Shown: positions 17,433-47,023 of the stretch, in pieces | How positions within the stretch are numbered: position 1 is the stretch's first letter | Layout: each line of letters opens with the position of its first letter | NCBI GenBank assembly: GCA_022564195.1 | Contig: JADFLW010000006.1 | Coordinates: 2,474 to 66,473 of the forward strand | Origin: Patescibacteria group bacterium | GTDB lineage: Bacteria > Patescibacteriota > Microgenomatia > UBA1400 > Chisholmbacteraceae | Direction of reading: 5' to 3' | DNA length: 64,000 bases | Translations under genes and position numbers: made by a program | Notes under the pieces: model-generated | Seen by the model: only the letters and a program-made list of their open reading frames with translations | What the model was told of the DNA's origin: nothing | The model's database searches: none

Positions 17433-17466
17433 CAGTAACATCATTATATCATCCGCAAATTAAGCT

Positions 17467-18434: not shown

Positions 18435-18522
18435 ACAAGCTGTAGTCTACCAGCAAAAAACCACTCGTGAAAAGTAACGAATGGTTTAAGCCTGCCGCGT
18501 GCGAACGCAGTGAGCTATACGT

Positions 18523-30402: not shown

Positions 30403-30450
30403 AATGCTCAAATGAATATACCAATACAATAAAGTGCGCCCTTCAAAACC

Positions 30451-31139: not shown

Positions 31140-31150
31140 AGGCGAGAATA

Positions 31151-31561: not shown

Positions 31562-31574
31562 CCGTGGACAAAAC

Positions 31575-31922
31575 ATGATATTCCCAACCTTTCTGCAGAC
31601 AACCGTCGATATCGGCTCCCAGCTCGGAACATTCTTCAGCATCACCGATGTCGGCTCACTCATAAGCGGCATCTTGGGCGCTGCTCTTCTCTTTGCTGCC
31701 ATCGCCTTCGTCCTCTACTTCGTCTGGGGTGCGCTGGGCTGGTTGACGGCAGGAGGCGACAAAACCCAACTCGAGCTTGCAAAGCAGCGCATCACCAACG
31801 CCTTCATCGGTCTTGTACTCGTCGCCGTTGCCTGGGCTATTTATCTTTTAGTCATCCACGTCCTTGGGCTCGGCGGGGTAATCAAGCTTACTAGCGTCCC
31901 TGCACCTCCTGCCCATAGTTGA
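31575..31922 (+). CDS. TrbC/VirB2-like pilin (paralog 7)
   Basis: LTAGGDKTQLELAKQRITNAFIGLVLVAVAWAIYLL. Confidence 0.6.
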   Translation: MIFPTFLQTTVDIGSQLGTFFSITDVGSLISGILGAALLFAAIAFVLYFVWGALGWLTAGGDKTQLELAKQRITNAFIGLVLVAVAWAIYLLVIHVLGLGGVIKLTSVPAPPAHS

Positions 31923-32030
31923 CAGCATTACAATACTCATCAATAATAGATGATAGATCGTCAAAATCATTCCAACAGTAGGAGGAGAAATTAACCGCAA
32001 CCAATCGGTAAGGTGAGAGGGGGTGAATAT

Positions 32031-32369
32031 ATGCTGACACTATTTGGTGTTGCCTACGCCCAAGGATCAATAACCGTAGCCCAACCTGTAGGATTCCAAA
32101 TCACAGACATCGGTACGCTCATCTCCGGAGCAATTGGCGCCGCCTTCATCATTGCGGGGCTATTGGTATTCGCCTATCTCGTTTGGGGAGGAATCCAGTG
32201 GATCACCGCTGGAGGAGACAAGGCTAACCTCGAGGCGGCAAGAGGACGCATATCCAATGCCCTCGTTGGTTTGGCGATCGTCGCTGCCGCATTCGCGGTG
32301 ATGCTCCTAGTCGAATTCGTCTTTGGATTCACGATCCTTGGAGGCGTCGAACTCCCAATATTCTATTAA
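32031..32369 (+). CDS. TrbC/VirB2-like pilin (paralog 8)
   Basis: ATG 32031 is preceded by a GGTGAGAGGGGG SD. ITAGGDKANLEAARGRISNALVGLAIVAAAFAVMLL. Confidence 0.6.
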   Translation: MLTLFGVAYAQGSITVAQPVGFQITDIGTLISGAIGAAFIIAGLLVFAYLVWGGIQWITAGGDKANLEAARGRISNALVGLAIVAAAFAVMLLVEFVFGFTILGGVELPIFY

Positions 32370-32418
32370 AGGGGAAGAGTGATGGTTCTAGTCGCGTACG
32401 CGACTAGAAAGTCTTCAA

Positions 32419-32835
32419 ATGGAAAACAGCAGTGGAAACTGGCAAGAGAGGCTTCGCCTCTGGATCAAAAAGCAGTTCTCACACTTGATTGCTGCTTTTG
32501 CTGTGATCATAGGATTCCTCGGCAATCCTATCAAAGCATACGCTGCGTTAGTCGGCGAAGAGCCAACGGAATTCTCCGCTTTAGAACCAATTGTCGAAAA
32601 TCTTATTAAAGCCGCCGTCCCAATCGCGGGTGTCGTGCTGTTTGGGATGCTGGTCTTCGGCGGCATCCAATACCTCACAAGCGGCGGTGATCCCGAAGGC
32701 ATGCAGAAAGCCAAAAGCACCCTCACCTACGCCATCATCGGCATCGTGCTTCTGGTTCTAACTTGGTTCGTGCTTCTATTTATCAAAACATTCACTGGTG
32801 TAGACGTCACCACCTTCACCATCCCCTCCCCATAA
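32419..32835 (+). CDS. TrbC/VirB2-like pilin (paralog 9)
   Basis: LTSGGDPEGMQKAKSTLTYAIIGIVLLVLTWFVLLF. Confidence 0.55.
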   Translation: MENSSGNWQERLRLWIKKQFSHLIAAFAVIIGFLGNPIKAYAALVGEEPTEFSALEPIVENLIKAAVPIAGVVLFGMLVFGGIQYLTSGGDPEGMQKAKSTLTYAIIGIVLLVLTWFVLLFIKTFTGVDVTTFTIPSP

Positions 32836-32895
32836 ACACAAAACGCTAAACCCTCTACCCTATTGCCTGATTCTTGTGCTACTATTATTTTTGAA

Positions 32896-34617
32896 ATGGG
32901 AAAACTTCGGTACTGGCTGCCCACGCTGCTCTTGGCAATTTTGGTGCTGATGCTGCCGCGTCCAGCCCGCGCCCTACCGATCACAAGCTGTGTCACCAAT
33001 CCCAACGAACCCCATCCCCTGCGCCCCTACCCCGGAGAGATCTGCGGACCTGAAGCCGCACGCACCATCGACCAAACCGATACCCCTTACTGCGCCATGC
33101 GGCCCTGGGCTGTTGGGAACATCGAATACCTCAGAAATCAGCAAGACTGCCCAGCAGGAGATCCCATTTTTCCCTGCATCATCAGAACCCTCTCCGGCAT
33201 CTACTCGATCGACCTTACCGAGTACGAACTTCCTCTCGTTTCGGTGAATCGACCGGGCTTTGAGTCCTTGACGTTCTTCAACCGTGCCCAAGAGCACCTG
33301 GCTGACTACCTCGAGGGCCGCACCTACTACGAAGGGGTTGCCGAGCCAGAGCCATCAAACAGCCCTATCGACTGGATTCCGGTCTGGAACCGGATCGGAG
33401 TGCTGCGCAAGCTCACCTCAACCCTGCCAAAACATGAGGGGAATATGATCCAGGATGCACTGAAGATCCAGATGATTGAGGGCGCCGGAGTAAGCCATCA
33501 CAACTACATCGTCGGCTACATCTCAGGCGGCGAACCAGCCGACTGGGGAACCGGGACCCCCATCCGATTAAGAGACTTCATCGGAAACTTTCCTCCGGAG
33601 TACATCTGCAACACAATCGCGGATCCGGTAGCAAGGAAGCTGTGCAACGAAGCCTGGCAAGCAGACTTTAATATATGGAAGGAAACCATCTACGGCAAGC
33701 TCTGGCCCTATGTTCCACTGGTCACCCGCGAGGATGCCAAAGGGTTTGTCCGCGTCTTTCCCGAACCGGGACAACCATTCACCACCCAAACCGCCCCGGT
33801 CAGCATCCCTCACCTGCCGCGCCTCCATGCCGTAAGCGGCATGCTCCAGCAGATGCTCGAATCGAACCTGATCGAAGAAGAGCCGGCGGAAGAAGCCGGA
33901 CCGTACGAAGGCGTCGCCTGCCCCGCCGGGCCCTGGTGGACATCGGGAACCTACGGCGCCTGCGGCAGCACCAGCTTCTGCCAGGTCGGTGCCTGTTCCG
34001 ATCCCGGATCCATGCCGTCGCTCTCCGGCGGTTCCGGCTCCTGCCGAGTCAACTGCTCAAGCCTTGCCGGTAACAGCGTTCCTCCGCTGATGCGGGACAT
34101 CATCGGAACCGCTGGCCAGGAGTATGGCGTCCCAGGCGCCCTCATCATCGCCATCATGTTCGCCGAAGGTGGGTTTGAGCGGCAATCCTGCTACGGCGGC
34201 GCTTGGAGCAACGCGCTCGTTGAAGAGTCAAGCGCTTGTGGAGGCCAAGTACCCAACTGCTGCAACTGCAACGTCAGCTCCTCCGGGGCTCGCGGCACCT
34301 TCCAATGGATTCCACGCTGGTTTGAAGCGTACAGAGATGCAGCCCAAGCCGTCGACCCTTCCCGAGCCGGAGATCCCTGCAACTTCCTGGATGCCGCCTT
34401 CGCCACTGCCAAGAAACTCTCCCTGGAACACGGCGGTGCCGCAAGCTATTCTCCGCCCTCCTGCGATGGCATCACCTACAACACCTTGGCACCCAGAAAA
34501 ACCAGCTGCGGCGACTGGAATAGCCAAGACATCGCGACCGCCACTCGCCAATACGTCGGCGCCTGCAATGTCGACTACCAGCAAAATGTGTTTTCCGCCT
34601 ACGACAAATGCAAGTAG
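32896..34617 (+). CDS. secreted Cys-rich protein with C-terminal VirB1/SLT-like lytic transglycosylase motifs
   Basis: Signal peptide. The C-terminal region AIMFAEGGFE ... SSGARGTFQWIP resembles the SLT catalytic-Glu and GxxQ motifs. Many paired cysteines. Confidence 0.45.
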   Translation: MGKLRYWLPTLLLAILVLMLPRPARALPITSCVTNPNEPHPLRPYPGEICGPEAARTIDQTDTPYCAMRPWAVGNIEYLRNQQDCPAGDPIFPCIIRTLSGIYSIDLTEYELPLVSVNRPGFESLTFFNRAQEHLADYLEGRTYYEGVAEPEPSNSPIDWIPVWNRIGVLRKLTSTLPKHEGNMIQDALKIQMIEGAGVSHHNYIVGYISGGEPADWGTGTPIRLRDFIGNFPPEYICNTIADPVARKLCNEAWQADFNIWKETIYGKLWPYVPLVTREDAKGFVRVFPEPGQPFTTQTAPVSIPHLPRLHAVSGMLQQMLESNLIEEEPAEEAGPYEGVACPAGPWWTSGTYGACGSTSFCQVGACSDPGSMPSLSGGSGSCRVNCSSLAGNSVPPLMRDIIGTAGQEYGVPGALIIAIMFAEGGFERQSCYGGAWSNALVEESSACGGQVPNCCNCNVSSSGARGTFQWIPRWFEAYRDAAQAVDPSRAGDPCNFLDAAFATAKKLSLEHGGAASYSPPSCDGITYNTLAPRKTSCGDWNSQDIATATRQYVGACNVDYQQNVFSAYDKCK

Positions 34618-34633
34618 TCGTGAATCATGAATA

Positions 34634-35644
34634 ATGAATAAAAAATTATCAAAACTACTACTGGTACCAGCTCTAGTCATTGCCTCAGTGCTGCTGTTCC
34701 ATGCCCCAGCAGCACAAGCCCAAGACTTCAGCGTCTTTTACAACGCCTGCACCGTCGGTCCCATCTGCGACCTCTGTGAGCAGTACTACTCCCCCGGCGA
34801 CTATGTGTTGGACGATGTCATCAGTTTCCCCGCAGAAGAGGAAAAGATCATCCCCCATCCCTATTATGAGGAATACAAAGACTTCACTTGTAAAGCCGAC
34901 GAGTGCTTAGTCGGCGTCTCCGACACCACGTATTGTGTCTCACCGACTGACGATGAGATACCAGCAATACGCCTTTGTACTGCGATCACACTCCCCAATT
35001 GCAATCTCAACGAGTGTCAAGACAGTCCGTCCAGCTCTCCCTATTGCGATATCGGCGCCGTAAGATTCTGCGACTCCAGCATATACGCACTCGGAGGTTG
35101 GCATTTCTGCACAACGTCGGGCTGGGACCCCACCGCCGTCGGTGGGACGAGTGGCGACTGCATTGCCGAGCCACCCCACCCAATCATGGGTTGCGATAAC
35201 GGAACCGTGGGCGTACCAGGTTCCGGCAATTGGATTGACCTTCCATCAAGGCCGAATGAACAGGGCCGCTGTGAAGAAATGCTCGAGGAGATACGGGTCG
35301 CCTTCACCCCAGGCTATGTCAAAACCTACACGCCATATCTTTTTGATATCTGGCAAAACACCGTCAAGCACACCGCGGCCATCTTCACACTCTTCCGCAC
35401 CCAAATCGGCGCCGAGATCTTCGACTGGCCTGGGGAATCAACCATCGCCTACGACTTCACCAACGATCTTGCCGAAGCCGGCTTTCCACCGACGATCCGG
35501 CCCGGATGGGATGCTAAAATCTACTTCCGCTATTTGGGTTACATCCACTGCGCCAAGGAAAATCTCCTACAAAAGCTCTCCTCCAGACTTGCAGACACGC
35601 CATACGTCTACTACGACGCCCGCTGCGATGCAGAACTTTGGTGA
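34634..35644 (+). CDS. secreted Cys-rich hypothetical protein
   Basis: Signal peptide ...APAAQA, about 24 cysteines, no recognisable catalytic motif. Confidence 0.5.
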   Translation: MNKKLSKLLLVPALVIASVLLFHAPAAQAQDFSVFYNACTVGPICDLCEQYYSPGDYVLDDVISFPAEEEKIIPHPYYEEYKDFTCKADECLVGVSDTTYCVSPTDDEIPAIRLCTAITLPNCNLNECQDSPSSSPYCDIGAVRFCDSSIYALGGWHFCTTSGWDPTAVGGTSGDCIAEPPHPIMGCDNGTVGVPGSGNWIDLPSRPNEQGRCEEMLEEIRVAFTPGYVKTYTPYLFDIWQNTVKHTAAIFTLFRTQIGAEIFDWPGESTIAYDFTNDLAEAGFPPTIRPGWDAKIYFRYLGYIHCAKENLLQKLSSRLADTPYVYYDARCDAELW

Positions 35645-36104: not shown

Positions 36105-37601
36105 ATGTTCTATTCTAAAATGATCTCAATGAGTCCTTTCCCGGCCCGCAAAAAGCTCCTCCTAACCATCGGGTTGATCTTTACCCTCCTTGTATTTGTT
36201 GGGGCAGTCAAAAAAGCCCATGCCCAACCTGCCTGGTTCATCCCCGTACCAGAAGAACATGCCGCTGCCCTCCAAGAGTGCCAAGCAGGCGATGTCGGTC
36301 TTGAATGTACGGTCCAGGCCATCGTCACCAGCATCGCCAATTCGTTCAACTACGGCCTCGGCGGAGATCCAACCGGAGGACCGACGCTCGGGAGACGCCC
36401 TGGGGCTATTCATTTTGCAAGCAACTTGCTTGGTACCCTCGTCGCCAACCCCCCAATCTCATCAGGAGACTACGTCCAGTATGTTGCCCAGCGCCTAAAC
36501 ATCGCCGAACCTGCCTACGCTCAGGCGGGCACAGGATTCAGAGCCCTCCAGCCGCTCATCCCTCTCTGGGCTGCTTTCCGAAACATCGCCTACTTGGCTT
36601 TCGTCGTCATCTTTATCTTGATAGGTTTCATGATCATGTTCAGGGCCCGCCTCGATCCCCAAACCGTGGTCAACGTCCAAAACTCTCTCCCGAAACTGGT
36701 GATCACCCTGCTTTTGATCACCTTCTCGTATGCCATTGCCGGCTTCTTGGTTGACTTGATCTACCTCGGCATCTTCGTCATCGTCTCCGTCCTTGCCTCC
36801 CAAGGCCTAATCGACAGTGCGGCAGCAGCACGCACTACCCTTATCGGAGAAAATCTCTTCACCTTCATCTTCAAAGGGGGAATTTTCCGAGCCGGAGACA
36901 CAGCCGGAGAAGCCATACGACTAATCATTGAAAAGGCAATTGACAACGACGCGTTAGGAGCAGTCGCGGGCTTCCTCGGAGACCCGTTCGTGCAGGTCAT
37001 CATGACCATCGCGCTCTTGTTTTCCGTGTTCAGGCTCTTCTTCCAACTCCTAATCGCCTATGTCCAAATCGTCATCCTCACCATCTTCGCCCCCATCATG
37101 ATCCTCTTCAACGCCCTACCAGGCTCTCAAAGCTTCGGCAACTGGCTGAGAAACTTTTTATCCAATATCCTCCTGTTTCCGGCCGTTGCGGCGCTCATCC
37201 TCGTTGCCGCCATCCTCATGGGCCCCTGCGAGTCAACTGGGCCAGATGATCCCTGCTCCCTCGGCCGCGAGAAATGGGGAATCTCGGATTCGCTCATTGA
37301 GCGTTACCCAGATCAGGGCTGGCTGCCGCCATTCATCGGCTTCACGACGGACACGAAAGCCGTCATCGCCCTCATCGGCTACGGCTTCATCCTCTTCGCT
37401 CCCCAAATGGTCTCTGCCCTGCAAAAGGCGCTCAAGGCCCAGCCGATCCCAGCCGCCGGCGTCTTCGCCCCCCTCGCCGCCGGCGCCAGAGTAGCCACGG
37501 CACCGATTAGAGCACCACTCCAAGCGATAGGCGCCGGAGCAAGAGTATTCGTCGGCCAAAAGATAGAGTCTCTCGCAGGCGAAACAAGAAAAAGAGGGTA
37601 A
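36105..37601 (+). CDS. polytopic membrane protein, candidate VirB6/TrbL-like T4SS component
   Basis: Signal/anchor plus at least 6 TM helices with a large loop. Location inside the T4SS-like locus; no enzymatic motifs. Confidence 0.4.
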   Translation: MFYSKMISMSPFPARKKLLLTIGLIFTLLVFVGAVKKAHAQPAWFIPVPEEHAAALQECQAGDVGLECTVQAIVTSIANSFNYGLGGDPTGGPTLGRRPGAIHFASNLLGTLVANPPISSGDYVQYVAQRLNIAEPAYAQAGTGFRALQPLIPLWAAFRNIAYLAFVVIFILIGFMIMFRARLDPQTVVNVQNSLPKLVITLLLITFSYAIAGFLVDLIYLGIFVIVSVLASQGLIDSAAAARTTLIGENLFTFIFKGGIFRAGDTAGEAIRLIIEKAIDNDALGAVAGFLGDPFVQVIMTIALLFSVFRLFFQLLIAYVQIVILTIFAPIMILFNALPGSQSFGNWLRNFLSNILLFPAVAALILVAAILMGPCESTGPDDPCSLGREKWGISDSLIERYPDQGWLPPFIGFTTDTKAVIALIGYGFILFAPQMVSALQKALKAQPIPAAGVFAPLAAGARVATAPIRAPLQAIGAGARVFVGQKIESLAGETRKRG

Positions 37602-37611: not shown

Positions 37612-40600
37612 CTACTCCTGCTGAAGATATGGACCCAACTCGTCAAGAAACGGTTTCATGATGAGCGTCCAAACCCCGATTGGTAAGGCAATGGGCCCGT
37701 ACTCTACAGCCAGCGAGGCAGCAACATGTCCTGCTCTTGCCCGATGCTTTCTCAGAAGCTTTCCCGCCTTCTCATTTCCAATAATCGGTCGCAGTTGATT
37801 AACGAACTGGAAAATCTCCAGCTTTGTCATACTCAACGCTTTGCCACCGAACTTGAGTTGCGCTTTTGAAGACATCGTCCAAGGTTTCCATATATTAATC
37901 GGCCCACCCCAATCCGCAATAAAACCACCGGGAAACCAATTCGCCCACCACTTAGCTTGATAAAGATTCTTCAATATCGTATCGGCTTTTGCGGCAATCA
38001 ATTTCTCCCTTTCAAATCCTGCCAGATGTTGGGCAGCTCCATAAAGCTCGGTAAACTGCTTGAACAGTTCTCCCTGGGAAGCCACAACCCGATCCTCAGG
38101 AGCAAATAATCCATTATCAATGTGTGTCATGACTCGGTCTGTGTTTTGTGCAAACTCAGCATCTCCGCCGATCCTTCTCGACACACCCCTCGGCCCTATC
38201 TTCCACCATTCAGCCTCCTCGTGTACCAAATCCTCCATGAAAGGCAAAAAGCTAAAATCAACTCCAGCCATTCTCTCCGCCCCTGTCTTAGCCCCGCCTT
38301 TACTCTTAGCTCCAAGGTGCGTCAGCCGCTCAACAACCTTTATCTCTTGATCAGAAAAACTCAATCCCAACTCATCCTCTCTCACTAGCTCAAGGACGCT
38401 CTTCTTGTAGTGCTTCTCACGATCTTCTGGTGATAAACCCTCTTTTTGATACCCATCGCTCTTGACATAATCCCGAAGTGCTTTTTCTTCATACACAGTC
38501 AGCTTCGAATGGAGCTCCTTCCATTGTTCAAAAACTTTTTCTTCCCAACCTTCTTTTTCCGTGTCAACAACGAATTGTTCAGCCAGCATCCAGGTGAAAC
38601 TCGCCTCCGCGCCCACCTGAAGCATGAGTTCCTTTTTCCTCTGCTCCATTCGTTTGTCGATTTCTCTATCCTTATCGCGCTTCTTGTCCTTAACGAACTT
38701 CGATTCTATGTCGGTTTTGACATCCTTCTCAATCACTTCCCAAATCTCTTCATCCTCAATCTTTTCCTTAACTTTCTTCTTGACGTAATCACACAAACCA
38801 TCCACATCTTGAACCACCGCGCCTCCCTCTCTGCCTTTTAACCTACTTCTAAGATCAAAGTAATCGTCTCTGCTTGCGTCTTTCCCTAGGGCTTCGAGTG
38901 AAAGCGTTGGAAAATATCTTGAGATGACTGTCGGCATCCGCTTCCCAACTTTCTCCCAAATATCTGCTTTTAGTGAATCTTCTATCGTGTCTTTATCCCA
39001 CTTCTTAATCCCTAACCTTTTCATGATTTTCATCTTCTCGCTCTTATCCTTACGACCCCTCCTCATCAACCTCTTCGCCTCATCTCCCATGTCATAGAGC
39101 TGCACACCCAATGCCACCCCCCGACTCCGTTGTTTCTCAGTTGCAACAACCGATCTCCAGTGAGACCCACTCAAAGGCCCCCCATACTTGACGTAATTCT
39201 CAACATTAATCCCCCACTCATCAAGTGGATCGCCTGGTATTTTTTCATGCACACCACTTTGAACAAACTGATTGAGTCTATCCAGCCAAGGCTTTCCCCC
39301 TTCTCTTCCTCGTCCCCAAGTCTCAAATCGCTCAGGACCTAAGCGCAAAAGTCGAAGCGGAACCTTATCAAATGGATAGCTCATATAGAGCTCGCCCATC
39401 TTCTGCGGGGCAAGTTGGGTCTGCGCTACATGTTCGGCGCTGCGCAGTAGAACATTGGACATCTTCATCGCCAATGCCGCCACCCGACGCGCCTCTTTTT
39501 CTCTTTCAGCTCCTTCACCTCCCAATTCCAACACTCCCTTGTCAGACATCGCCAGCAAGCCCTCAGCAACAATCTGCTCAATTTCCGGAGGCCTATAACC
39601 CCCATGAGAACTCGGTATAAGAAAGTCAATAGGGATCCGCCCTTTATATTGAGGATCCATACGAACCTGAGCCAAAATCCGCTCAACTATTCCGAGCGCC
39701 GGGGACAGTGTAGGCTCCATGATCGACATGGTATCCAAGTCCTCAGAAAGCAAAAGCTTTCCAGAAACTCCTTTGAGTTCTTCAGGATCTCCGCCCCTGA
39801 TGAGCTCAGAATTCAAAAAACTGAAAACCCGTCGCGTCCATAGCAGGTTTTCGTATCTCCGCTTCTCATCTACTCCCGTCGGGCCTGCATCACGAAGTTT
39901 TTTCATTAATGTCGAAAACAGAATATGTCCCCAACTCTCCATCCGAAAGCCTTCGCGCGGGTCGCTCTCGGCATCTCCGATAATTTCTTCAAACAGGGGT
40001 TTAATGAAATGCGTGCGTAATCTTTCTCGAAAATCCTCCATGCTCTCTTTATCGATCGGCTTGCTCTGTAATTGTTGAATTTCAGAGACCAGCTGATCCC
40101 TCATAGAGCTAGAGGCAAACTGAACCTCTTTCCCTTGGATATTGAAAACAACATTTTCTTCGTCCAGAGTGCTTTGATCCACCAATTGCTGTAACCCTTC
40201 TTCATCAAGAGTCAGCACCTGAAAAACACCCGCCTCTTCAACATCCAATATGTGGTAGTAAATCTCTTTCGTTTCCAATCCGTACATCCTTCCGAGATAA
40301 TCAGCAATCTCCCTCTCATTTTCCGTGATGTGAGAAAGTGAAAATTCTATCCCACGCAACTCTTTATTCCCCTGTTCCCACTCTTCCATAAGCTGCTTAA
40401 CCAGCTTCTCACTACCGGCGTCATCTGCCTCATCGAGGTTATTCGAAATCTGCTGCAGTTTATCTTCTGCCTTCTGCCGCAGGGCTTCAAACCTTTTTAC
40501 TTGTCTGTCCATGCTCTCACGCTCGTCTCCTATATCTCCCGCAGGAGAAGCCCCTGCTAGTCCTTCCAACATCGCTGTCTTTTTAGCCGCTATTTCCTCA

Positions 40601-41172
40601 GGGCTCTTGCCAGCCTCTTCAAGTTTTTTCACCCGCTCATCCACCTCCGCCTCATGCACAGCTCGTTCAAGTCGTGTTTCTTCTTCTTTAGTAAAATCAA
40701 GCCCTGTAAACATCCACTTGAGTATTGCCTCTGGAGTATCATGGCCGGCTTCCTTAGCCGCCTTGATCAACTCCGCAAACTCCCCTTCTTCGTCTTCGAA
40801 GATCTCTTTAATCTGCTTCCAGAGATACTTTAGAAGCGCGAGAAGCAACTCAAGGATAGAGGCTTTTTCCTCCTCATCAACTTTCTTTCCCTGCTCCTTC
40901 TTCTTGAGTAATTCAAGAAGCTTTTTGAGGTTTGTATCTGCTATTTTAAGCTCCCCGGGCTTCAATTGAGCCTGCTCCAGTGCCGCCTGAAACAGTTCCC
41001 CCCGACTTTTTGCTCCCTTATCAACATCCTTTGCATCCTTTTTCGCTTCATAAACCGTCTTTTTCTCCTTCGGTCGCTCTGCCTTTTTTTTCTCAGCCCG
41101 ACGCTCACTGGAAGGTTTTTTTGCCTTCTCTTCTTTCGGTTTTTTGGTTGGTTCTCCCTCGTGTTCATTCAT
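37612..41172 (-). CDS. 1186-aa hypothetical protein, K/E-rich N-terminus, extensive coiled coils, no recognisable catalytic motifs
   Basis: Long uninterrupted ORF on the opposite strand inside the T4SS-like locus. No Walker or relaxase motifs seen. Confidence 0.6.
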   Translation of the reverse strand: MNEHEGEPTKKPKEEKAKKPSSERRAEKKKAERPKEKKTVYEAKKDAKDVDKGAKSRGELFQAALEQAQLKPGELKIADTNLKKLLELLKKKEQGKKVDEEEKASILELLLALLKYLWKQIKEIFEDEEGEFAELIKAAKEAGHDTPEAILKWMFTGLDFTKEEETRLERAVHEAEVDERVKKLEEAGKSPEEIAAKKTAMLEGLAGASPAGDIGDERESMDRQVKRFEALRQKAEDKLQQISNNLDEADDAGSEKLVKQLMEEWEQGNKELRGIEFSLSHITENEREIADYLGRMYGLETKEIYYHILDVEEAGVFQVLTLDEEGLQQLVDQSTLDEENVVFNIQGKEVQFASSSMRDQLVSEIQQLQSKPIDKESMEDFRERLRTHFIKPLFEEIIGDAESDPREGFRMESWGHILFSTLMKKLRDAGPTGVDEKRRYENLLWTRRVFSFLNSELIRGGDPEELKGVSGKLLLSEDLDTMSIMEPTLSPALGIVERILAQVRMDPQYKGRIPIDFLIPSSHGGYRPPEIEQIVAEGLLAMSDKGVLELGGEGAEREKEARRVAALAMKMSNVLLRSAEHVAQTQLAPQKMGELYMSYPFDKVPLRLLRLGPERFETWGRGREGGKPWLDRLNQFVQSGVHEKIPGDPLDEWGINVENYVKYGGPLSGSHWRSVVATEKQRSRGVALGVQLYDMGDEAKRLMRRGRKDKSEKMKIMKRLGIKKWDKDTIEDSLKADIWEKVGKRMPTVISRYFPTLSLEALGKDASRDDYFDLRSRLKGREGGAVVQDVDGLCDYVKKKVKEKIEDEEIWEVIEKDVKTDIESKFVKDKKRDKDREIDKRMEQRKKELMLQVGAEASFTWMLAEQFVVDTEKEGWEEKVFEQWKELHSKLTVYEEKALRDYVKSDGYQKEGLSPEDREKHYKKSVLELVREDELGLSFSDQEIKVVERLTHLGAKSKGGAKTGAERMAGVDFSFLPFMEDLVHEEAEWWKIGPRGVSRRIGGDAEFAQNTDRVMTHIDNGLFAPEDRVVASQGELFKQFTELYGAAQHLAGFEREKLIAAKADTILKNLYQAKWWANWFPGGFIADWGGPINIWKPWTMSSKAQLKFGGKALSMTKLEIFQFVNQLRPIIGNEKAGKLLRKHRARAGHVAASLAVEYGPIALPIGVWTLIMKPFLDELGPYLQQE

Positions 41173-41387
41173 AGTTCTGCGCTATTCCCTAATTCTTAAT
41201 TCATAATTCTTGTTTCCTGCCTCAATCCTACAACAAAACCCTCAACCCCGCACCACAACCTTTGACTTCTACTCGGGCTCAAATTGTACCATAAAATCCT
41301 AAAAGGGTCAACCACTAATATGTACCCCTAAGTTTAAGGCCTAGCGTCTGAGGAAAAATGAAACTCAAACACTTTTCACGCAATGCG

Positions 41388-41690
41388 TCACGCCACAGCC
41401 GCCTTCCGCTTTCGAGGTCGTCCACCACGCTTTCCATACTCTCTGGGGCTTTTGAGGAAAGACTTATACTTCTCAACTGCTCTTCCCGTCGTTAACCACC
41501 GCCACGGATAACCACGACCATCTTTGCGCACCTTCCAACCCTTAACACGTCCGGTGTTCAACAGACGACGAATCCTGTGCGTAGAAAGCCCAACGCGCTT
41601 TGCAACTTCCGAAATTGGAAGAACCCCTCGCTCCTTCTCAGACTTCTTTGCAATCTCCGGTGGTCGTGGTGCATACTCCCCTTCTACCAT
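41388..41690 (-). CDS. excisionase/AlpA-family helix-turn-helix DNA-binding protein
   Basis: LPISEVAKRVGLSTHRIRRLLNTGRVKGWKV...W matches the Xis-type HTH pattern. Basic C-terminal tail. Confidence 0.5.
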   Translation of the reverse strand: MVEGEYAPRPPEIAKKSEKERGVLPISEVAKRVGLSTHRIRRLLNTGRVKGWKVRKDGRGYPWRWLTTGRAVEKYKSFLKSPREYGKRGGRPRKRKAAVA

Positions 41691-41837
41691 ACCCGAAGTA
41701 TACCAAACACTTTCTACCCCACCCTAAACCCTAGACCCCAGACCCTCATGAATGCTATTATGGCCTCAACAATCTGTCGTTGAATCTTGGAGCTTTAATT
41801 TTGAACTTTTCACTCTGAACTTTTAATCGGTGTTCCC

Positions 41838-44678
41838 ATGCCCGACGAGCCGCAAGCACCAGACGTTCCTGAAACACCTCAGCCAGAACAACCCACGCCC
41901 CCCGATGGTGGAGAAGAACTACCTCCCGAAAAGCCCATCGACACCTACGAAGGCCTCCGTGACGACCTCAAAACCCAACTGGAAGGCCAGTATCAGGAAA
42001 AGATGCAGGGGTTTCTCCATCCAGAACCCAACCCGCAGCTTGCTTCTAGCGCCGCCAACATCGTTTCCCAACACGCCATCAGATACCTCCCTGCAGAAGG
42101 GGAGGTCTCTCCAGAACACCTCTCCCAGGCAATCACTGCCGCCCAAACCGATCTTGCCGACAGAAGGCTCTGGTACCAAGCCATTCTCCCAAAAGAGCCC
42201 ATACGAATCGATATCGCCAAATCCATCGCTTCAAGATACACTCCTGAAAAGCTAGTCGGCCGCAGGCTCACAAAGACAAGCAATGCCTTAAGAACCGCGG
42301 CGGATGACTACAGAAACAGGGTTGAACAAACTCGCGTGCAACTTCCGAAGCGCGAGGATTTGCTTCCCGCAATCCAATCAGAGCTCCAGAAATCAGGAAT
42401 CACTGATAAAAAACTCTACACGAAGCAGGCGGTAAAAATAGCCAGTGATCTGGATAAATGGACCTTCAGCTACCAGGCCGCCCCGCCCCAAGAAGTCATT
42501 CAAACCGCCGTTCAAAGACGTGCCGGAAAACACGTTGAGGATACCCAGGGCCTTGCAACGCGGCTGTCGGAAAACACCACGGTCTCCAAGCACTACGAGG
42601 CGGGCGCCCAGCATCACCATCTCGTCGCTCACGGGCTCACCAAGACAATCAACAAAGCCGCCTCCAGTCGTCTCGTCCGAGGAGCAAGGAAGCTTACAAA
42701 GGCAGCCGACATCATCAGACGCCCCCTCACCTACGCCGGAAGGGCAGCCACCTTCCCGGTGCGGTTTGCCGTCCGAAAAGTCACCCGCCCAATCGGAAGA
42801 GTGGTCAAAAGAGGAGTCCGACGAGTAGCCATCGGAGCTGCCCGATTGGCAGCCAAGGTCCTGGTGAAAGTCGGCCTCGGCGGACTGGTCAAAAACATCG
42901 AGCGAGTCGCCCTTGCCAGCACCGGCGTGGGCATTCCCCTCCTCATCGCCCAAGAAGCCGCCTTGTTTGGAATAGGACAACTTTTTAAAGCCAAAAAATC
43001 GCTTCAGGAGAGCTGGCAAAAGGCATATCAGTCGCGCAATGTCGGCGAAGCGCTGATCAACAACATCGGTGCCTCGATCGACACAGTCGGTGCCGGCATA
43101 GGCGGGATCGTTGGTGGCGTTGCCGGAACAGGCGTGGGAGCCATAGGTGGTGCCATCATCGGCTCGCTACTGGGACCGGTCGGCACCATCATCGGAGGAG
43201 TGCTCGGTGGAGTAGCTGGTGGCCTCTTTGGCGCAGGTGTTGGTGCCAACGCCGGAGCAAGACTGCGCAAAAACCTCAAGCGCATGATTGCCATTCGGCT
43301 CTTCCTCAAACTCCTTTGGGCCAAGATAGCAGGGCTCATAAAGGCAGCTGCCTTCACACTTGGTGGTGCGCTTACTGGTGCAGTCATCGGCTTCGCAGTG
43401 GGAGGGCCCGTTGGTGCCCTTGTGGGAGGTATTATTGGTGGAACTGCCGGATATCTGCTGCCCAAAGCAGCCACCAGCGCCAGACAGCTCGTCTACATCG
43501 CCAGGCACTACGCTTTTATCGAAGGCCCAATCGCCCAAGTCTTCAAAGGAATCGGCAATCTCCTTGCAAAAATCCCTTCAGGCATCGCGAGAGCTTTCAA
43601 CGCCGCCACCGGCTGGATCGGAGGAACCACCACCTCTGCAACCGCAACGGCCGAAGCGGTTGCCACCGGAATCACCACCGCTGGCCCCGGAACCGCACTC
43701 GCCCTCACGCCAGTTGCTACCATCGCCACGGTGGGGCTATTTGCCTTCATCACCTACTCGGTTTTGATCACCGCCTTCTTCGTCCCCCCAACCGAAGTCA
43801 CCCCGTTCTTTGAAATTCCATCGCGCTTCATCAAAATCACCAAAACCGCCTGCGCCACCTCAGCGGGTGGGGAGACCTTCTGTGACGTCAATGGCCAGCT
43901 TGTCCTTGAAAATCCCACCGCCGAAGGCCCCTATGACATCGTCTATCAGATCATAGTTGAGGCCGTGGATCAGACCTTAACCAACGTTGCCATTGAAGAT
44001 ACCTATACGGCATTCGGCGAAAACGATCCGACCCCGCCAGCTCCACTATCATGGAACGGCACAATCACCATCGGCTCCGGAGACCCTTGGAGTGAGACCG
44101 TCAATCTCACCATCCCCAGATCCAGCAGCTGGGATGACTCTCTCCTCATCAACACCGTCACGGTCACAGCCTTCCTCACAGGCACGACAGAGCCCATCGT
44201 CAATTCCAATTCGGTAAACATCATCTTTGGAAACCCTCCCTTCTGCCCGCCCAGCGGCGATCCGTTAGCCACCCCCTACGGTTGGATTCGGGGCTTCACT
44301 CCTGGCTTCCACACCGGAGTTGACGTAAAAGGCTCGCCCGCAATCGGCGCCACCATCTCCTCCACCTTCCCCTGCCGAGCCATCGTCCGCCACGCCGGCC
44401 TCGACACCTACGACAGGGGGCAGTTTGGCTTCTACGTTGCGCTCCAATCCGGCCCCTGGTTCGCCTTCTATTCCCACATGAACGCTACGCCCTATGTCAA
44501 CGAAGGTGATATCGTCGGCGGTGGCACTGCGCTCGGCCCCCAAGGGTCGTCGGGAAACTCCTCAGGTCCACACCTACACTACGAAATCCGAGAAGGGACA
44601 AGCGTCAATCCAAAAGTAAACTGGCAGCCGACGTTGGCCAAAGACCCCTGTAATTTCGGCGTCACCGCCTGCCCATGA
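41838..44678 (+). CDS. 946-aa protein with C-terminal M23 (LytM) metallopeptidase domain and central glycine-zipper membrane region
   Basis: M23 motifs HTGVDV ... HAG ... AFYSHMNA ... GSSGNSSGPHLHYEI. Central run of GxxxG repeats (GAGIGGIVGGVAGTGVGAIGGAIIGSLLG...). Proline-rich N-terminus. Confidence 0.75.
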   Translation: MPDEPQAPDVPETPQPEQPTPPDGGEELPPEKPIDTYEGLRDDLKTQLEGQYQEKMQGFLHPEPNPQLASSAANIVSQHAIRYLPAEGEVSPEHLSQAITAAQTDLADRRLWYQAILPKEPIRIDIAKSIASRYTPEKLVGRRLTKTSNALRTAADDYRNRVEQTRVQLPKREDLLPAIQSELQKSGITDKKLYTKQAVKIASDLDKWTFSYQAAPPQEVIQTAVQRRAGKHVEDTQGLATRLSENTTVSKHYEAGAQHHHLVAHGLTKTINKAASSRLVRGARKLTKAADIIRRPLTYAGRAATFPVRFAVRKVTRPIGRVVKRGVRRVAIGAARLAAKVLVKVGLGGLVKNIERVALASTGVGIPLLIAQEAALFGIGQLFKAKKSLQESWQKAYQSRNVGEALINNIGASIDTVGAGIGGIVGGVAGTGVGAIGGAIIGSLLGPVGTIIGGVLGGVAGGLFGAGVGANAGARLRKNLKRMIAIRLFLKLLWAKIAGLIKAAAFTLGGALTGAVIGFAVGGPVGALVGGIIGGTAGYLLPKAATSARQLVYIARHYAFIEGPIAQVFKGIGNLLAKIPSGIARAFNAATGWIGGTTTSATATAEAVATGITTAGPGTALALTPVATIATVGLFAFITYSVLITAFFVPPTEVTPFFEIPSRFIKITKTACATSAGGETFCDVNGQLVLENPTAEGPYDIVYQIIVEAVDQTLTNVAIEDTYTAFGENDPTPPAPLSWNGTITIGSGDPWSETVNLTIPRSSSWDDSLLINTVTVTAFLTGTTEPIVNSNSVNIIFGNPPFCPPSGDPLATPYGWIRGFTPGFHTGVDVKGSPAIGATISSTFPCRAIVRHAGLDTYDRGQFGFYVALQSGPWFAFYSHMNATPYVNEGDIVGGGTALGPQGSSGNSSGPHLHYEIREGTSVNPKVNWQPTLAKDPCNFGVTACP

Positions 44679-44703: not shown

Positions 44704-45783
44704 ATGATGGATGTGCCCGGCCGACTCACAATCAAAAGGTTTCTCACGGGAAAAACGCTCCTGTTTCTCTTGCTTGCAACCATCATCACCCTCGTTATCG
44801 GAGTACGTTTGGTTAAACGGCAACAGGAGCAACGCCCTGGAATCAAACCTACATTCGGAGAGCTGCTCGCCCCCCTGCCAGCCTATAAATCTCCTCACCC
44901 GAACCCGCAGACGTCCAAGATAGAGCTCCCCCCAGCGCTCAATCTCCCTGAAACGGCCGTGGTCTATCGTCAAGGGATCCGTTCGATAGAAGATCAGCGG
45001 GCGCGCCAAATTGGACAAGCGTTGAGGATGGGCGTCCAGCCCCAAATATTCGGAAACACCATGGTCTTCCAACAAGAAGCGAAGTTTTTAAGCCTCAACC
45101 TCAAAACCGGAGATGTCTCCTACTCCGAACCGCTTCCCGAGTACCTCAAGACCCTCAGTCAACCGGCGCTGGAAGATTATGCGCTTTTATTAATCAAACA
45201 ATTGTTCCCGGACTCGACATTTTGGGAAAATCCGGTGATGCAAACCCAGCACCTCGCCACACGGGAACCAGAGCCCAGCCCCCACGGAGACCTCCAACTT
45301 GTCCCTCCTGAAAGTGCCCAACTCGCCATCGTCGAGGCTTTCCCAACAATCAATGGCACAAGAATCGTCGGACCAAAAGATCCCTTCGGTCAACGCGGAA
45401 TAGTGACCGCAAAATTCCTCAAAAACGACGGCCTCATCTCGCTCAACGGCGCTGTTGTCGCCATAGATATCTCTAACACCGGTACCTACCCCTTGAAATC
45501 CCTCCCTCTCGCACAACAAGAGATCGGCGCCGGAAGAGCCCTGTTTACCACCGCCATTCCAGCAGGGACATCCTACGGACAAGTCGAGCCCGGAGCAGAC
45601 ATTACTCCAACCAGCGCAGAATACACCGAAGCAGAGGTGGTCTACTACTACAACCCTGATCCCAACACATTCCTGCAGCCCATGTACCTGTTTACCGGCA
45701 AAACAACCCTCACCGATGGCCGACCAGCAACCATCATCGCCATCCTTCCCGCCATTGACCCCCAATTCCTGAAACAACCATAA
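44704..45783 (+). CDS. N-terminally anchored hypothetical protein (possible VirB8/VirB10-like bitopic component, speculative)
   Basis: Single N-terminal TM helix and large extracytoplasmic domain. Placement between the M23 protein and the PrgI-like gene. Confidence 0.4.
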   Translation: MMDVPGRLTIKRFLTGKTLLFLLLATIITLVIGVRLVKRQQEQRPGIKPTFGELLAPLPAYKSPHPNPQTSKIELPPALNLPETAVVYRQGIRSIEDQRARQIGQALRMGVQPQIFGNTMVFQQEAKFLSLNLKTGDVSYSEPLPEYLKTLSQPALEDYALLLIKQLFPDSTFWENPVMQTQHLATREPEPSPHGDLQLVPPESAQLAIVEAFPTINGTRIVGPKDPFGQRGIVTAKFLKNDGLISLNGAVVAIDISNTGTYPLKSLPLAQQEIGAGRALFTTAIPAGTSYGQVEPGADITPTSAEYTEAEVVYYYNPDPNTFLQPMYLFTGKTTLTDGRPATIIAILPAIDPQFLKQP

Positions 45784-45927
45784 AAAGCAGTACCTAGCCC
45801 TAGCCCTGTCCTCTGCTCCCCTGTTATAATGACCGCGATAGCAATTTGTCCCTTTTGAAACTCGCGAAGCACGAGGAAACAAGAATTCTTACTAAACCCT
45901 ATACCCTAAACGCTAAACGCTAATTTA

Positions 45928-47019
45928 ATGGAACAACACCCCGTCCCCCAACAAATCTCAGCCTACCACTTCCGCTTGGTCGGCGACATGACCATTAAGC
46001 AGTTCATCGAGCTGTCAGCCGGCGTCGTCGTCGGCTGGATCATCTACTCACTCCCCATCCATCCCATCATCCGCTGGCCATTGGTCATCTCTTCGGTCTT
46101 TGCCGGAGTCACCTTCGCCTTCCTTCCCCTTGAAGAGCGCCCCCTAGACCGCTGGCTCCTAGCCTTCATTAAAGCTGTCTACTCACCCACGCAATACATC
46201 TGGAAGAAATCCGTCATCATTCCGGAATTCTTCGAAGAGATAAAACTGAGAAAAGTGGCAGCCAAGGAAGAACGGGTAGGGGTTGATCGCAAGAAGCTGG
46301 AAGAGTATCTCGAAACCCTGCCCGCCCCAGGGCCTGAAACCTCAATCGATAAAAAGGAGAACCAGTTTATCTCCGACATCATGAAGCTCTACATAGAGGT
46401 CCAACCAAAGGTTGTCACCCCAGTCAAGCCAAAAAAGGCCATCCTTGAGGAGGAACGGATTCCAAAAGTCGCGGTCAGGAAACTCAAGACCCCCCCGCTT
46501 GATCCACGCGCCATCATGCGAGGCGAAATTATTATGCCGAAACGCCCAAAGCCAAGAACCATCCAAGTCCCTGAAATTGAACCGACTCCAGTGGAAAAGC
46601 TGTCCCCGTCACCCGAAACCCCGCCTCCACAGGAGCAAGCGCCCACCGAAACTGTCGCGTCTTCCGGCATCGATCCAACAGGAGCAATAAAGATTCCTTC
46701 CATGAAACAGGTTGCCGAAGCAACCATGGCTCCTGGACTACCGATGCCAGCCCCGCCAACCGAACCAAACGTCGTCGCCGGGATGGTCGTGGACGACAAG
46801 GGCAATATCGTCGAAAACGCAATCGTGACAATTAAAGACCATGAAGGCAATGTCGCTCGCGCCCAAAAAACCAACAAAATCGGCCAATTCTTCATTGCCA
46901 CACCTTTAGAAAACGGGGACTACGAAATCGAAGTTGAGAAAGAAGCCTTAAGCTTTGATATAATTAAAATAAAGCTCGAAGGAAAGCTCGTTCTACCCAT
47001 CGAAATCCGAGCCAAATAA
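45928..47019 (+). CDS. PrgI/VirB3-like membrane protein fused to a C-terminal carboxypeptidase-regulatory-like beta-sandwich domain
   Basis: N-terminus MTIKQFIELSAGVVVGWIIYSL...WPLVISSVFAGVTFAFLPLEERPLDRWLLAFIK resembles PrgI family/VirB3. C-terminus GMVVDDKGNIVENAIVTIKDHEGN...GDYEIEVEKE. Confidence 0.4.
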   Translation: MEQHPVPQQISAYHFRLVGDMTIKQFIELSAGVVVGWIIYSLPIHPIIRWPLVISSVFAGVTFAFLPLEERPLDRWLLAFIKAVYSPTQYIWKKSVIIPEFFEEIKLRKVAAKEERVGVDRKKLEEYLETLPAPGPETSIDKKENQFISDIMKLYIEVQPKVVTPVKPKKAILEEERIPKVAVRKLKTPPLDPRAIMRGEIIMPKRPKPRTIQVPEIEPTPVEKLSPSPETPPPQEQAPTETVASSGIDPTGAIKIPSMKQVAEATMAPGLPMPAPPTEPNVVAGMVVDDKGNIVENAIVTIKDHEGNVARAQKTNKIGQFFIATPLENGDYEIEVEKEALSFDIIKIKLEGKLVLPIEIRAK

Positions 47020-47023
47020 CCAA

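Follow-up and report, generated by a model that had tools for sequence, protein, structure and literature searches.

Conjugation requires a relaxase and a coupling protein. The T4SS clusters of Patescibacteria usually carry neither, and the substrate that they move is unknown, according to three published accounts (PMC12102498, PMC10633639, PMC12857230); in the sole genetically tested Patescibacterium, T4SS genes are essential for epibiotic growth, as described in one of these (PMC10633639). The locus analyzed here, within a 64,000-nt stretch of a Patescibacteria group bacterium genome (the window), agrees with the published Patescibacterial MPF-FATA-like T4SS (Quinonero-Coronel et al. 2025, PMC12102498; Wang et al. 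2023, PMC10633639). According to those descriptions, the window and the published cluster have in common VirB4, TrsD, a PrgI/VirB3-like protein, a divergent VirB6-like gene, an array of VirB2-like pilins (PF18895) and an M23 hydrolase, as well as the absence of a relaxase and a coupling protein and a site beside dnaN and dnaA. Judging from its sequence, the locus is a chromosomal, origin-proximal Patescibacterial T4SS of the MPF-FATA-like kind. It also includes a large gene that converges with the VirB6-like one; we found no mention of such a gene in the available sections of PMC12102498, PMC10633639 and PMC12857230. The locus is organized as follows.

29306..29923 (-): ECF-type sigma factor, the locus boundary, identically positioned in all complete related loci
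29989..35644 (+): upstream operon of seven VirB2-like pilin genes (PF18895), followed by genes for two secreted proteins rich in Cys (24 Cys in 584 aa; 17 Cys in 336 aa), ending at the VirB6-like gene
36105..37601 (+): VirB6-like polytopic membrane protein with 7 predicted TM segments and a weak conjugal-transfer match
37612..41172 (-): the large gene, 1186 aa (NCBI MCH7951626.1, 'hypothetical protein IH980_02750')
41283..41311 (-): promoter-like site TTGACC-17-TACAAT with a TG extension (consensus match only), about 110 nt upstream of the ATG of the large gene
41388..41690 (-): small HTH gene, 100 aa, basic (29% K+R), upstream of the large gene on the same strand
41838..44678 (+): M23-domain membrane protein (946 aa) that also has a glycine zipper, a T4SS cell-wall hydrolase; heads the operon diverging from the HTH gene
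44704..49962 (+): remainder of the M23-led operon, encoding a 359-aa single-TM protein, a PrgI/VirB3-like protein (PF12666 above cut-off, plus a CarboxypepD_reg domain), a TrsD-like protein (weak NF041427 match, TraC-like) and the VirB4 ATPase (48013-49962; monoderm CD1110 type, NCBIfam NF045971, E 1.3e-122, above cut-off)
49967-51115: dnaN (domain scan)
51362-52741: dnaA (domain scan)

A split VirB4 at 47024-48013 was considered and dismissed, this being the TrsD-like protein known from such systems (PMC12102498). The window ORFs scanned contain no relaxase or integrase domain and no coupling protein, and every non-ATPase protein of the locus other than the large one is a membrane or Sec-type protein. 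Tape-measure-like PHROG matches in the locus come from the M23 protein.

The large gene is an ATG-to-stop ORF that, as recognized in an earlier note made from the sequence, is the longest in the window (1186 aa, followed by 997 and 946 aa) and converges with the 7-TM VirB6-like gene, the two ORFs ending 10 nt apart. The start codon is supported by an N-terminal MxEHE motif common to the homologues. Together with the length, the persistence of conserved blocks down to ~20% identity and the occurrence in many metagenomes, this motif makes a spurious ORF as unlikely as the earlier note had judged, and indicates that the gene is genuine. The protein is charged (17% K+R, 19% D+E; one Cys), with the K/E-rich N-terminus (30 K+R and 21 D+E within residues 1-100) and Trp/Gly-rich C-terminus (6 W and 10 G within residues 1001-1100, including WWANWFPGGFIADWGGPINIWKPW) that had been noticed before. 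The G+C content of the gene is low; the low GC2 derives from the K/E-rich composition, and GC3 is lower in 3 of the 4 minus-strand genes measured in the window, so recent horizontal transfer was discarded as the cause.

The gene belongs to its own minus-strand unit between two T4SS operons, consisting of the HTH gene, the promoter-like site and the large gene itself. The site suggests, from its match to the consensus, that the large gene could be transcribed on its own. Short sequence motifs are common to the upstream regions of the HTH gene and the large gene, and may be chance matches. The HTH protein yields weak HTH_17/MerR matches (E about 0.004-0.006) and a PHROG excisionase match (E 7e-5). 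The neighbor had been called an excisionase-like HTH, but an excisionase of a mobile element is not the likeliest reading, given the lack of an integrase in the ORFs scanned, the chromosomal, origin-adjacent site and the retention of the HTH gene in 5 of the 6 loci checked. Because the locus is chromosomal, lies beside dnaN/dnaA and shows no integrase or relaxase among the scanned window ORFs, a small transcription regulator is more likely.

The protein, previously thought to be an orphan, has a family. An exhaustive phmmer search of 1.84 billion representatives retrieved 13 relatives, among which four span the full length and are 31-40% identical; profile searches added two remote ones. A word-indexed protein search returned only the query itself for the whole protein and a single fragment for the C-terminal alignment; the word index seems to have been swamped by K/E-rich words. 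The protein is therefore conserved in related genomes, and no plasmid or phage homologues were found. Pfam, NCBIfam and PHROGs contain no profile for this rare, undescribed family of proteins of Microgenomates-type ultrasmall bacteria, which are predicted to be all-helical and cytoplasmic. The regions of the protein are the following.

41017..41172 (-): residues 1-52, K/E/P-rich tail, predicted disordered (pLDDT < 50); the MxEHE at its start recurs in homologues (alignment)
40063..41016 (-): residues 53-370, the N-terminal third, helical and variable; 215-252 and 255-297 form helical pairs (model)
39073..40062 (-): residues 371-700, conserved middle core with DAExDPR, SEDxDT, GRIP and SxWR blocks (alignment)
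38401..39072 (-): residues 701-924, K/E-rich helices, less conserved in sequence but modeled with high confidence, with an RxPT block (P747) and R845
37615..38400 (-): residues 925-1186, conserved C-terminal module with FSxxExxxVERLTxLG, PFxxD, GxxGxxRR..D, SSxAQRKFG and LRPxxGxE blocks
37870..37953 (-): residues 1074-1101, loop rich in Trp, Gly and Pro (WWANWFPGGFIADWGGPINIWKPW), modeled with low confidence
37657..37734 (-): residues 1147-1172, hydrophobic helix near the C-terminus, then an acidic amphipathic tail (hydropathy)

Residues 53-370 are mostly absent from the short remote family members, and hhalign and hmmsearch matches to remote members begin in the middle core. The core of residues 371-1186 is conserved to ~20% identity, its first part (371-700) as well as the C-terminus. 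W672 and R673 of the SxWR block are present in at least 90% of sequences, and D981, G993, R999, R1000, D1004, P1091 and G1109 are invariant in all 14. The search for conserved residues gave no catalytic signature, the conserved positions all being Asp, Arg, Gly, Pro, Trp, Ser or Gln, and no His, Tyr or Cys is conserved family-wide in the 15-sequence alignment. At the position of the Trp/Gly/Pro-rich loop, remote members have other hydrophobic, Gly-rich stretches, and the loop is possibly a membrane-interface element. The C-terminal hydrophobic helix keeps its position across the family; on simple hydropathy scales, it scores KD 1.46-1.49 in the large protein, below the usual 1.6, and among 10 family members scored it reaches TM level in only three (L011, L015 and P0014; KD 1.8-2.6), the others being weak (0.8-1.2). 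Both C-terminal hydrophobic elements thus mostly fall under TM-level hydrophobicity. The check for secretion signals that the earlier note had proposed detected no signal peptide, and hydropathy gives neither a firm transmembrane helix nor an N-terminal TM segment; because of these two results, the protein is predicted to be made in the cytoplasm.

The AlphaFold2 model (pLDDT 71.5, pTM 0.63) is all-helical and sheet-free, with a single tiny hairpin at residues 342-351, and its pTM suggests a packed multi-domain body. The long coiled-coil segments noted earlier are not confirmed by this model, in which the longest helices measure 38 and 43 residues. The absence of Walker, relaxase, peptidase and glycosidase domains, originally judged by eye, was borne out by searches of Pfam, PHROGs, NCBIfam and PDB sequences: no Pfam, NCBIfam or PDB-sequence match was obtained for any of 14 family members, nor any PHROG match for the large protein. 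Foldseek with the AlphaFold model returned nothing significant from the PDB (the lowest E was 0.014 with the whole chain and 2.8 with only the C-terminal half) or from viral structures. No well-known domain, then, accounts for the protein.

Several specific identities were rejected. VirD4/TcpA coupling proteins have N-terminal TM segments and a Walker A/B NTPase domain, and the large protein has neither a TM segment nor a P-loop domain match. VirB8-like proteins (PrgL/TraM) combine an N-terminal TM helix with an NTF2-like alpha+beta domain, whereas here the N-terminal TM segment is missing and the model has no sheet beyond the lone hairpin. SMC-like proteins combine an ATPase head of the ABC type with a hinged antiparallel coiled coil that spans hundreds of residues; neither SMC nor ABC profiles matched, there is no such head, helices extend to ~40 residues at most, and the pTM of the model also speaks against a long coiled coil. 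Phage tape-measure proteins are recognized by a tape-measure profile match and a tail-gene neighborhood, and the large protein has no PHROG match and lies outside any phage context; viral contigs, viral structures and phage genomes yielded no relatives.

The position of the gene is constant. Related loci were located with an alignment of five close C-terminal sequences. In all seven loci with a family member and enough context, the family gene converges with the VirB6-like one and is oriented away from the M23-PrgI-TrsD-VirB4 operon, and an HTH-sized gene precedes it in six, the exception being L008; the HTH proteins are 35-63% identical in five comparison loci (L001, L002, L006, L007, L009) and 100% in the strain variant L017. 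Even where insertions have rearranged the neighborhood (L006, L008), the family gene stays among T4SS genes. With the VirB6-like protein as the anchor for locating the slot in distant genomes, a large Pfam-less gene was found there in 6/6 more distant loci, two of these genes encoding remote homologues and four proteins without detectable similarity. Profile-profile tests showed no connection between the family and the proteins of L012/L016, L013 and L014, so a single superfamily comprising all slot proteins was rejected. At least four mutually unrecognizable sequence groups therefore fill the slot while the flanking machinery stays recognizable. The slot gene is single-copy and strictly positioned in 13/13 loci, and in L011-L016 it lies among T4SS genes though dnaN is not nearby. 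The co-occurrence with T4SS loci that the earlier note had suggested looking for is accordingly seen throughout, in all 7 family and all 6 distant loci.

The large protein is the fastest-evolving product of the locus in all five locus comparisons (23-37% identity, 0.10-0.53 bits per residue), in which VirB4 is 82-85%, TrsD 65-80%, the VirB6-like protein 47-64% and the pilins 45-84% identical. All five differences from the protein of strain variant L017 fall within residues 63-171; at this strain level, the gene differs by 3 synonymous and 5 nonsynonymous substitutions and the remainder of the locus by 21 substitutions, numbers too small for dN/dS to be interpreted.

Since these organisms are mostly uncultured, we infer the function of the large protein from context only. 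Our main reading, to which we assign a probability of about 0.85, is that it is a dedicated partner of the Microgenomates-type Patescibacterial T4SS. The earlier note had offered cargo, an effector or a novel structural component; the latter two are both viable, whereas cargo, in the sense of a passenger gene, is unsupported because the slot is constant in position and orientation in every related locus examined and is filled in distant loci as well, the low G+C is explained by composition, and plasmid or phage homologues were not found. How the partner acts is less certain. Tentatively, at somewhat below even odds, we favor an exported substrate: residues 371-1186, comprising the middle core and the C-terminal module with its Trp/Gly-rich loop and terminal helix, would dock at the membrane-embedded T4SS, and the protein would then be exported through it as a dedicated substrate, to act as an effector or translocator on the host cell of the epibiont, and the divergent promoters would probably be under the control of the small HTH protein. 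Without a signal peptide or TM segment, any extracellular action would need the T4SS. Consistent with export are the fastest evolution in all five comparisons, the unrecognizable occupants of the slot amid recognizable machinery, the membrane or Sec-type nature of the other non-ATPase proteins, the mostly sub-TM hydrophobicity of the C-terminal elements, and the separate transcription unit with its own promoter-like site.

Almost as likely as an exported substrate is a non-exported accessory, that is, a helical scaffold or adaptor held at the cytoplasmic membrane face by the C-terminal helix and the Trp-rich loop and working with VirB4, TrsD and VirB6, perhaps to receive or gate substrates in place of the missing coupling protein. 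A single copy at a strictly fixed position is what one would expect of a machine component more than of an effector repertoire, the protein is predicted to be cytoplasmic like VirB4 and TrsD, the core is conserved over great divergence, and the terminal helix, constant in position, is TM-like in three homologues, where it could act as a tail anchor in the producer's own membrane. Speaking against export, the scanned ORFs include no coupling protein, searches gave no homology or fold similarity to known effector or translocation domains (CagA, BID, XVIPCD, Dot/Icm substrates), and the acidic C-terminal tail of the large protein is unlike the basic VirB/D4 signals. As an objection to the accessory reading, the large protein changes in sequence much more quickly than the cytoplasmic machine parts that an accessory must bind (although all-helical scaffold proteins can also evolve fast), its counterparts in other lineages show no detectable similarity, the helix is too weak for a TM anchor in most members, and features of a coupling protein, such as an NTPase motif, are absent. 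A function unrelated to secretion, such as cell architecture or origin-near chromosome handling, with mere linkage to T4SS genes, is unlikely: the locus lies beside dnaN and dnaA and sequence by itself gives no functional readout, but the gene sits between T4SS genes rather than by dnaN in every locus, rearranged ones included, and the slot persists where dnaN is not nearby. Slightly less probable still is a regulatory or sensory module formed with the HTH protein for the two flanking operons, in which the large protein might integrate signals as a partner of that protein or of the ECF sigma factor. The location between the operons, adjoining the HTH gene and facing the divergent promoter region, would fit, as would the fixed presence of the sigma factor and the shared upstream motifs, if these are not chance; however, domains that bind DNA or nucleotides are absent from the protein, as are anti-sigma, kinase and receiver domains, at 1186 residues it would be an unusually large regulator for a ~1 Mb genome, and divergence this fast is rare among regulators. 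Least probable of all is a pilot or DNA-processing protein that has diverged strongly, either left over from a relaxase or replacing one, with the HTH protein as accessory and a basic disordered N-terminus binding nucleic acid. In conjugative plasmids, DNA-transfer modules with a small HTH accessory are oriented away from the mating-pair operon, an arrangement that the HTH gene and the large gene resemble, and the N-terminus is indeed Lys-rich and disordered. Relaxases, however, have a catalytic Tyr and a His-rich metal site, or another known relaxase fold; the lack of any conserved Tyr, His or Cys, an all-helical model unlike HUH, Rep_trans or restriction-endonuclease-like relaxases and the absence of relaxase profile matches argue against a MOB relaxase, and the locus is fixed at the chromosomal origin rather than carried on a mobile element, with no oriT-like inverted repeat that stands out. 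The possibility that very different relaxases are still to be found is left open by the authors of PMC12102498.

Either as T4SS cargo or as a lineage-specific machine part, a protein always encoded within the locus, with predicted cytoplasmic synthesis, evolution faster than that of surface pilins and no known fold, is a concrete candidate, and the rule of a large gene convergent on virB6 offers a simple way to gather such candidates across Microgenomates genomes. A speculative and rather improbable extension of the export reading is that the slot encodes the missing substrate of the Patescibacterial T4SS, a large helical protein that would pass through the pilus-bearing machine, insert its Trp-rich loop and hydrophobic helix into the host membrane and form or anchor a feeding conduit; if so, an arms race with the host would explain why the occupants of the slot have diverged beyond recognition between lineages.

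Among known systems, phage tape-measure and SMC-like proteins resemble the large protein in being long, helical and charge-rich. Tail-anchored proteins resemble it in having a large cytoplasmic body, no signal peptide and a lone hydrophobic helix within the ~35 C-terminal residues, but TM-level hydrophobicity is reached in 3/10 family members scored and is borderline in the protein itself, so a firm tail anchor is not supported. The Xanthomonas X-Tfe toxins with XVIPCD and the Bartonella Beps with BID domains likewise pair a variable N-terminal part with a better conserved C-terminal part; here, the middle core is also conserved, there is one copy per locus rather than a repertoire, and Pfam scans reveal no XVIPCD or BID homology in the family. 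CagA of Helicobacter pylori, a largely helical, fast-evolving protein of ~1200 residues with a lineage-specific fold and no signal peptide, is a dedicated T4SS substrate whose gene lies in the cag island. Searches with the large protein gave no similarity to CagA in sequence or fold, its system is monoderm rather than diderm, and neither a basic C-terminal signal nor a cagF-like chaperone gene was identified. The two are alike in general terms, in size, helicity, absence of a signal peptide, fast evolution and position in a T4SS locus.

The 1186-residue protein encoded at 37612-41172 on the minus strand is the product of a real gene, belongs to a rare, undescribed all-helical family and is predicted to be cytoplasmic. 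Its gene holds a fixed slot in the Patescibacterial T4SS locus of Microgenomates type, between two T4SS operons and convergent on the VirB6-like gene, and is the fastest-evolving gene there. The gene is an intact ORF from ATG to stop, and it is the longest of the window, as the earlier note had it (the runners-up encode 997 and 946 aa). The described K/E-rich N-terminus and Trp/Gly-rich C-terminus are likewise evident in the residue counts, with 30 K+R and 21 D+E in residues 1-100, and 6 Trp and 10 Gly in residues 1001-1100, WWANWFPGGFIADWGGPINIWKPW among them. There is one Cys over the entire length; the suggested search for secretion signals found no N-terminal signal peptide, and no 19-residue Kyte-Doolittle window reaches the usual membrane-helix threshold (maximum 1.49, residues 1154-1172). 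About 110 nt before the ATG is a promoter-like TTGACC, 17 nt, TG-TACAAT (a consensus match only), and the gene appears to be transcribed apart from the machine operons. Its reduced G+C (0.47 versus 0.50-0.59 in the other locus genes) is due to a low GC2 (0.35), from the K/E-rich composition, and to a GC3 level (0.47-0.49) that it shares with the HTH gene and dnaN; the fourth minus-strand gene measured, for the ECF sigma factor, is at 0.55. Neither GC2 nor GC3 points to recent transfer as the source.

The surrounding locus matches the Patescibacterial T4SS type that passages of PMC12102498 describe, and every defining feature of that type that was tested was found in it. In window order, the locus comprises:

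Minus strand: ECF sigma factor gene
Next in order: seven VirB2-like pilin genes
32863-34617 (+): secreted Cys-rich protein, 584 aa, 24 Cys, Pfam-less, with a signal-peptide-like N-terminus
34634-35644 (+): secreted Cys-rich protein, 336 aa, 17 Cys, Pfam-less, with a signal-peptide-like N-terminus
36105-37601 (+): VirB6-like protein, 7-TM
37612-41172 (-): the 1186-aa protein
41388-41690 (-): basic HTH protein, 100 aa
Plus strand: 946-aa membrane protein with an M23 peptidase domain, 359-aa single-TM protein and PrgI/VirB3-like protein
47024-48013 (+): TrsD-like protein
48013-49962 (+): VirB4, which with the TrsD-like gene ends the plus-strand operon

No integrase, relaxase or coupling protein was found among the window ORFs scanned. 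The large protein is predicted to be cytoplasmic, which among the other proteins of the locus holds only for the HTH protein, the sigma factor and the two of ATPase type. The ORF at 47024-48013 looks like the N-terminal portion of VirB4 and runs right up to where VirB4 begins, giving the appearance of a split gene; this reading was rejected, as its match is to the TrsD/TraD family. Its identity in related loci is 65-80%. In the passages of PMC12102498, TrsD is the commonest T4SS component of Patescibacteria. Upstream of both the large gene and the HTH gene lie a 10-nt exact repeat, AAAGTGTTTG (minus strand, 41366-41375 and 41704-41713), and a G-rich 19-mer (41236-41254 and 41726-41744, 79% identical), which could be operators to which the HTH protein binds, or may be coincidental. 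The ORF at 24469-25269 (+), some 5 kb away from the main pilin array, encodes 266 aa and has a weak match to the T4SS-pilin domain at its C-terminus (PF18895, E 8e-5).

The locus is followed by dnaN and dnaA (51362-52741), which lie just before the minimum of the cumulative GC skew; over window positions 1-64000 the skew falls steadily to near 58-60 kb and then rises. Because this minimum adjoins dnaA/dnaN, the data are consistent with a replication origin close to the T4SS locus. Elsewhere in the window, Rfam detects a full-length tmRNA at 18522-18933 (-) (67.6 bits, E 3.5e-24), not reported by ARAGORN, and six tRNA genes cluster at 15392-17556 (-), four of them for Ser, with different anticodons, and two for Arg. 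The 997-aa protein at 59366-62359 (+) combines an NAD-dependent epimerase/dehydratase domain with DUF4012 and is surrounded by polysaccharide-synthesis genes (Wzy_C, Polysacc_synt).

The earlier note was largely right in its observation, but its description of the protein as an orphan with long coiled coils needs correction. A word-indexed protein search returned the self-match alone (NCBI MCH7951626.1, 'hypothetical protein', Patescibacteria group bacterium), whereas exhaustive phmmer over 1.84 billion cluster representatives recovered 13 relatives. Four of them are full length (1151-1283 aa, 31-40% identity), several are fragments, and two are distant, with 1723 and 889 aa. A lack of conservation in related genomes was looked for, and the family proved to be conserved there; a search of viral contigs, plasmids and phage genomes found no relatives. 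Members share the start MxEHE, a variable N-terminal third and the blocks DAExDPR, SEDxDT, GRIP, SxWR, RxPT, FSxxExxxVERLTxLG, PFxxD, GxxGxxRR..D, SSxAQRKFG and LRPxxGxE. Among closer members, conservation is highest in residues 371-700 and 925-1186 (30-49% identity) and lower in residues 53-370 and 701-924 (20-38%). In an alignment of 15 sequences, the residues retained in at least 90% are Trp, Arg, Pro, Asp, Gly, Ser and Gln, and His, Cys, Tyr and Lys are absent from this set, so no catalytic signature is evident.

No known domain or fold explains the protein. It has no match in Pfam, PHROGs or NCBIfam, none of 14 family members has a meaningful Pfam match, and neither the single sequence nor the family profile matches a PDB chain (E up to 10). 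The AlphaFold2 model built on the family alignment (mean pLDDT 71.5, pTM 0.63) is helical throughout except for one small hairpin, with low confidence in residues 1-52, 204-222, 589-628, 649-669 and 1074-1101; its longest helices span 38 and 43 residues, and it looks like a packed multi-domain helical body, not a long coiled coil. Foldseek with this model gave no significant match, either to the PDB, where generic solenoids came up with a best E of 0.014 and a TM of about 0.1, or to viral structures (best E 0.13), and a second model of residues 660-1186 (pLDDT 72.6) left the structure search empty (best E 2.8). Compared with effector families, relaxases, coupling proteins, VirB8-like, SMC-like and tape-measure proteins, it belongs to none.

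The family gene occupies the same T4SS position in all informative loci (7/7), and the suggestion that it is cargo is rejected. Two Candidatus Chisholmbacteria genomes carry homologues in loci entirely collinear with the window, and a near-identical strain has the same organization. On contigs with more distant members, whose identities are 31%, 34% and about 25% and which include the proteins of 1723 aa and 889 aa, the large gene is again convergent on the VirB6-like gene and divergent from the M23-PrgI-TrsD-VirB4 operon, preceded by a small HTH-sized gene on all but one family locus (L008). The arrangement is kept despite local toxin-antitoxin gene insertions in L008 and one of the related loci (L006). 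Small mobile-type genes, namely ParE/Phd and HepT/MNT toxin-antitoxin pairs and '23S_rRNA_IVP' family genes, border the HTH and large-gene unit at 4169-4689 and 9351-9728 in L006 and at 7102-7960 and 9556-9846 in L008, leaving the slot undisturbed.

The slot is found more widely than the family. Among more than 850 homologues of the VirB6-like protein, an identity gap separates the clade accompanying this family (at least 47%) from the remainder (at most 41%), from which we took six loci. In each of the six, the VirB6-like gene is immediately followed, on the opposite strand, by a large gene of 782-1214 aa that lacks any Pfam match. The occupants in L011 (hhalign E 3.4e-10, 599 aligned columns) and L015 (hmmsearch E 1.9e-26) are remote homologues of the family; those in L012 and L016 are related to each other (E 2e-43) and have no detectable relation to it, and those in L013 and L014 match nothing compared. 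All slot proteins lack a signal peptide, are 25-38% charged and have few Cys. Since the slot is kept in 6/6 distant loci, it is conserved; its occupant has either lost all recognizable similarity or been exchanged for another at least three times. Upstream of the slot gene and on the same strand, L013 encodes an acidic 302-aa protein (15433-16341, -) and L016 a 130-aa protein (7086-7478, -), both with no obvious HTH; what is conserved of the two-gene unit may be its form, not its sequence. In distant loci, one protein of 818-1362 aa replaces the Cys-rich pair, in L015 with a cellulase domain (PF00150).

When every window gene was compared with five related loci by tblastn, the large gene was the most diverged in each comparison, at 23-37% identity and 0.10-0.53 bits per residue; the corresponding identities were 82-85% for VirB4, 65-80% for TrsD, 47-64% for the VirB6-like protein, 45-84% for the pilins and 32-55% for the M23 protein. 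Between two near-identical strains, the large gene has 3 synonymous and 5 nonsynonymous changes and the remaining locus 14 and 7, counts too small to interpret; all five amino-acid changes fall within residues 63-171.

Family members retain a hydrophobic helix that lies about 15-35 residues before the C-terminus and is followed by an acidic amphipathic tail. Its 17-residue hydropathy is 2.58, 1.97 and 1.79 in three remote members, where a tail anchor is credible, 1.46 in the window protein and 0.8-1.2 in most others. On these hydropathy values, a true membrane anchor does not appear to be a family-wide property. In the Trp/Gly-rich loop upstream of this helix, remote members have other Gly-rich hydrophobic stretches instead. 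Model confidence is low for both loop and helix, which we read as putative membrane-interface elements.

The earlier alternative of effector or structural component stands: we infer that an exported substrate and a non-exported accessory fit almost equally well. We rank first, at a probability of about 0.4, that the protein is an exported T4SS substrate, because of its very large rate contrast with VirB4 and TrsD, because the slot occupant is unrecognizable between lineages in which the machinery is recognizable, because a cytoplasmic protein lacking a signal peptide would reach the host only via the T4SS, and because its hydrophobic elements mostly fall short of the hydrophobicity at which it would be trapped in the producer's own membrane. 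That it is a T4SS accessory that stays in the cell is almost as likely; in favor are its strict conservation in position as a single copy, a terminal helix that is TM-like in some members, and a locus lacking a coupling protein among the ORFs scanned. There is little support for a regulator, a DNA-processing protein or a function unrelated to secretion.

Passages of PMC12102498, PMC12857230 and PMC10633639 contain no description of the large protein, and we rate it as a new, conserved component of a known Patescibacterial T4SS type. It bears on the cargo and mode of action of the Patescibacterial T4SS, a secretion system that is essential in the one Patescibacterium tested genetically; the organisms are mostly uncultured. 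The nearest analogy would be CagA, a dedicated substrate encoded in the locus of its own secretion system.
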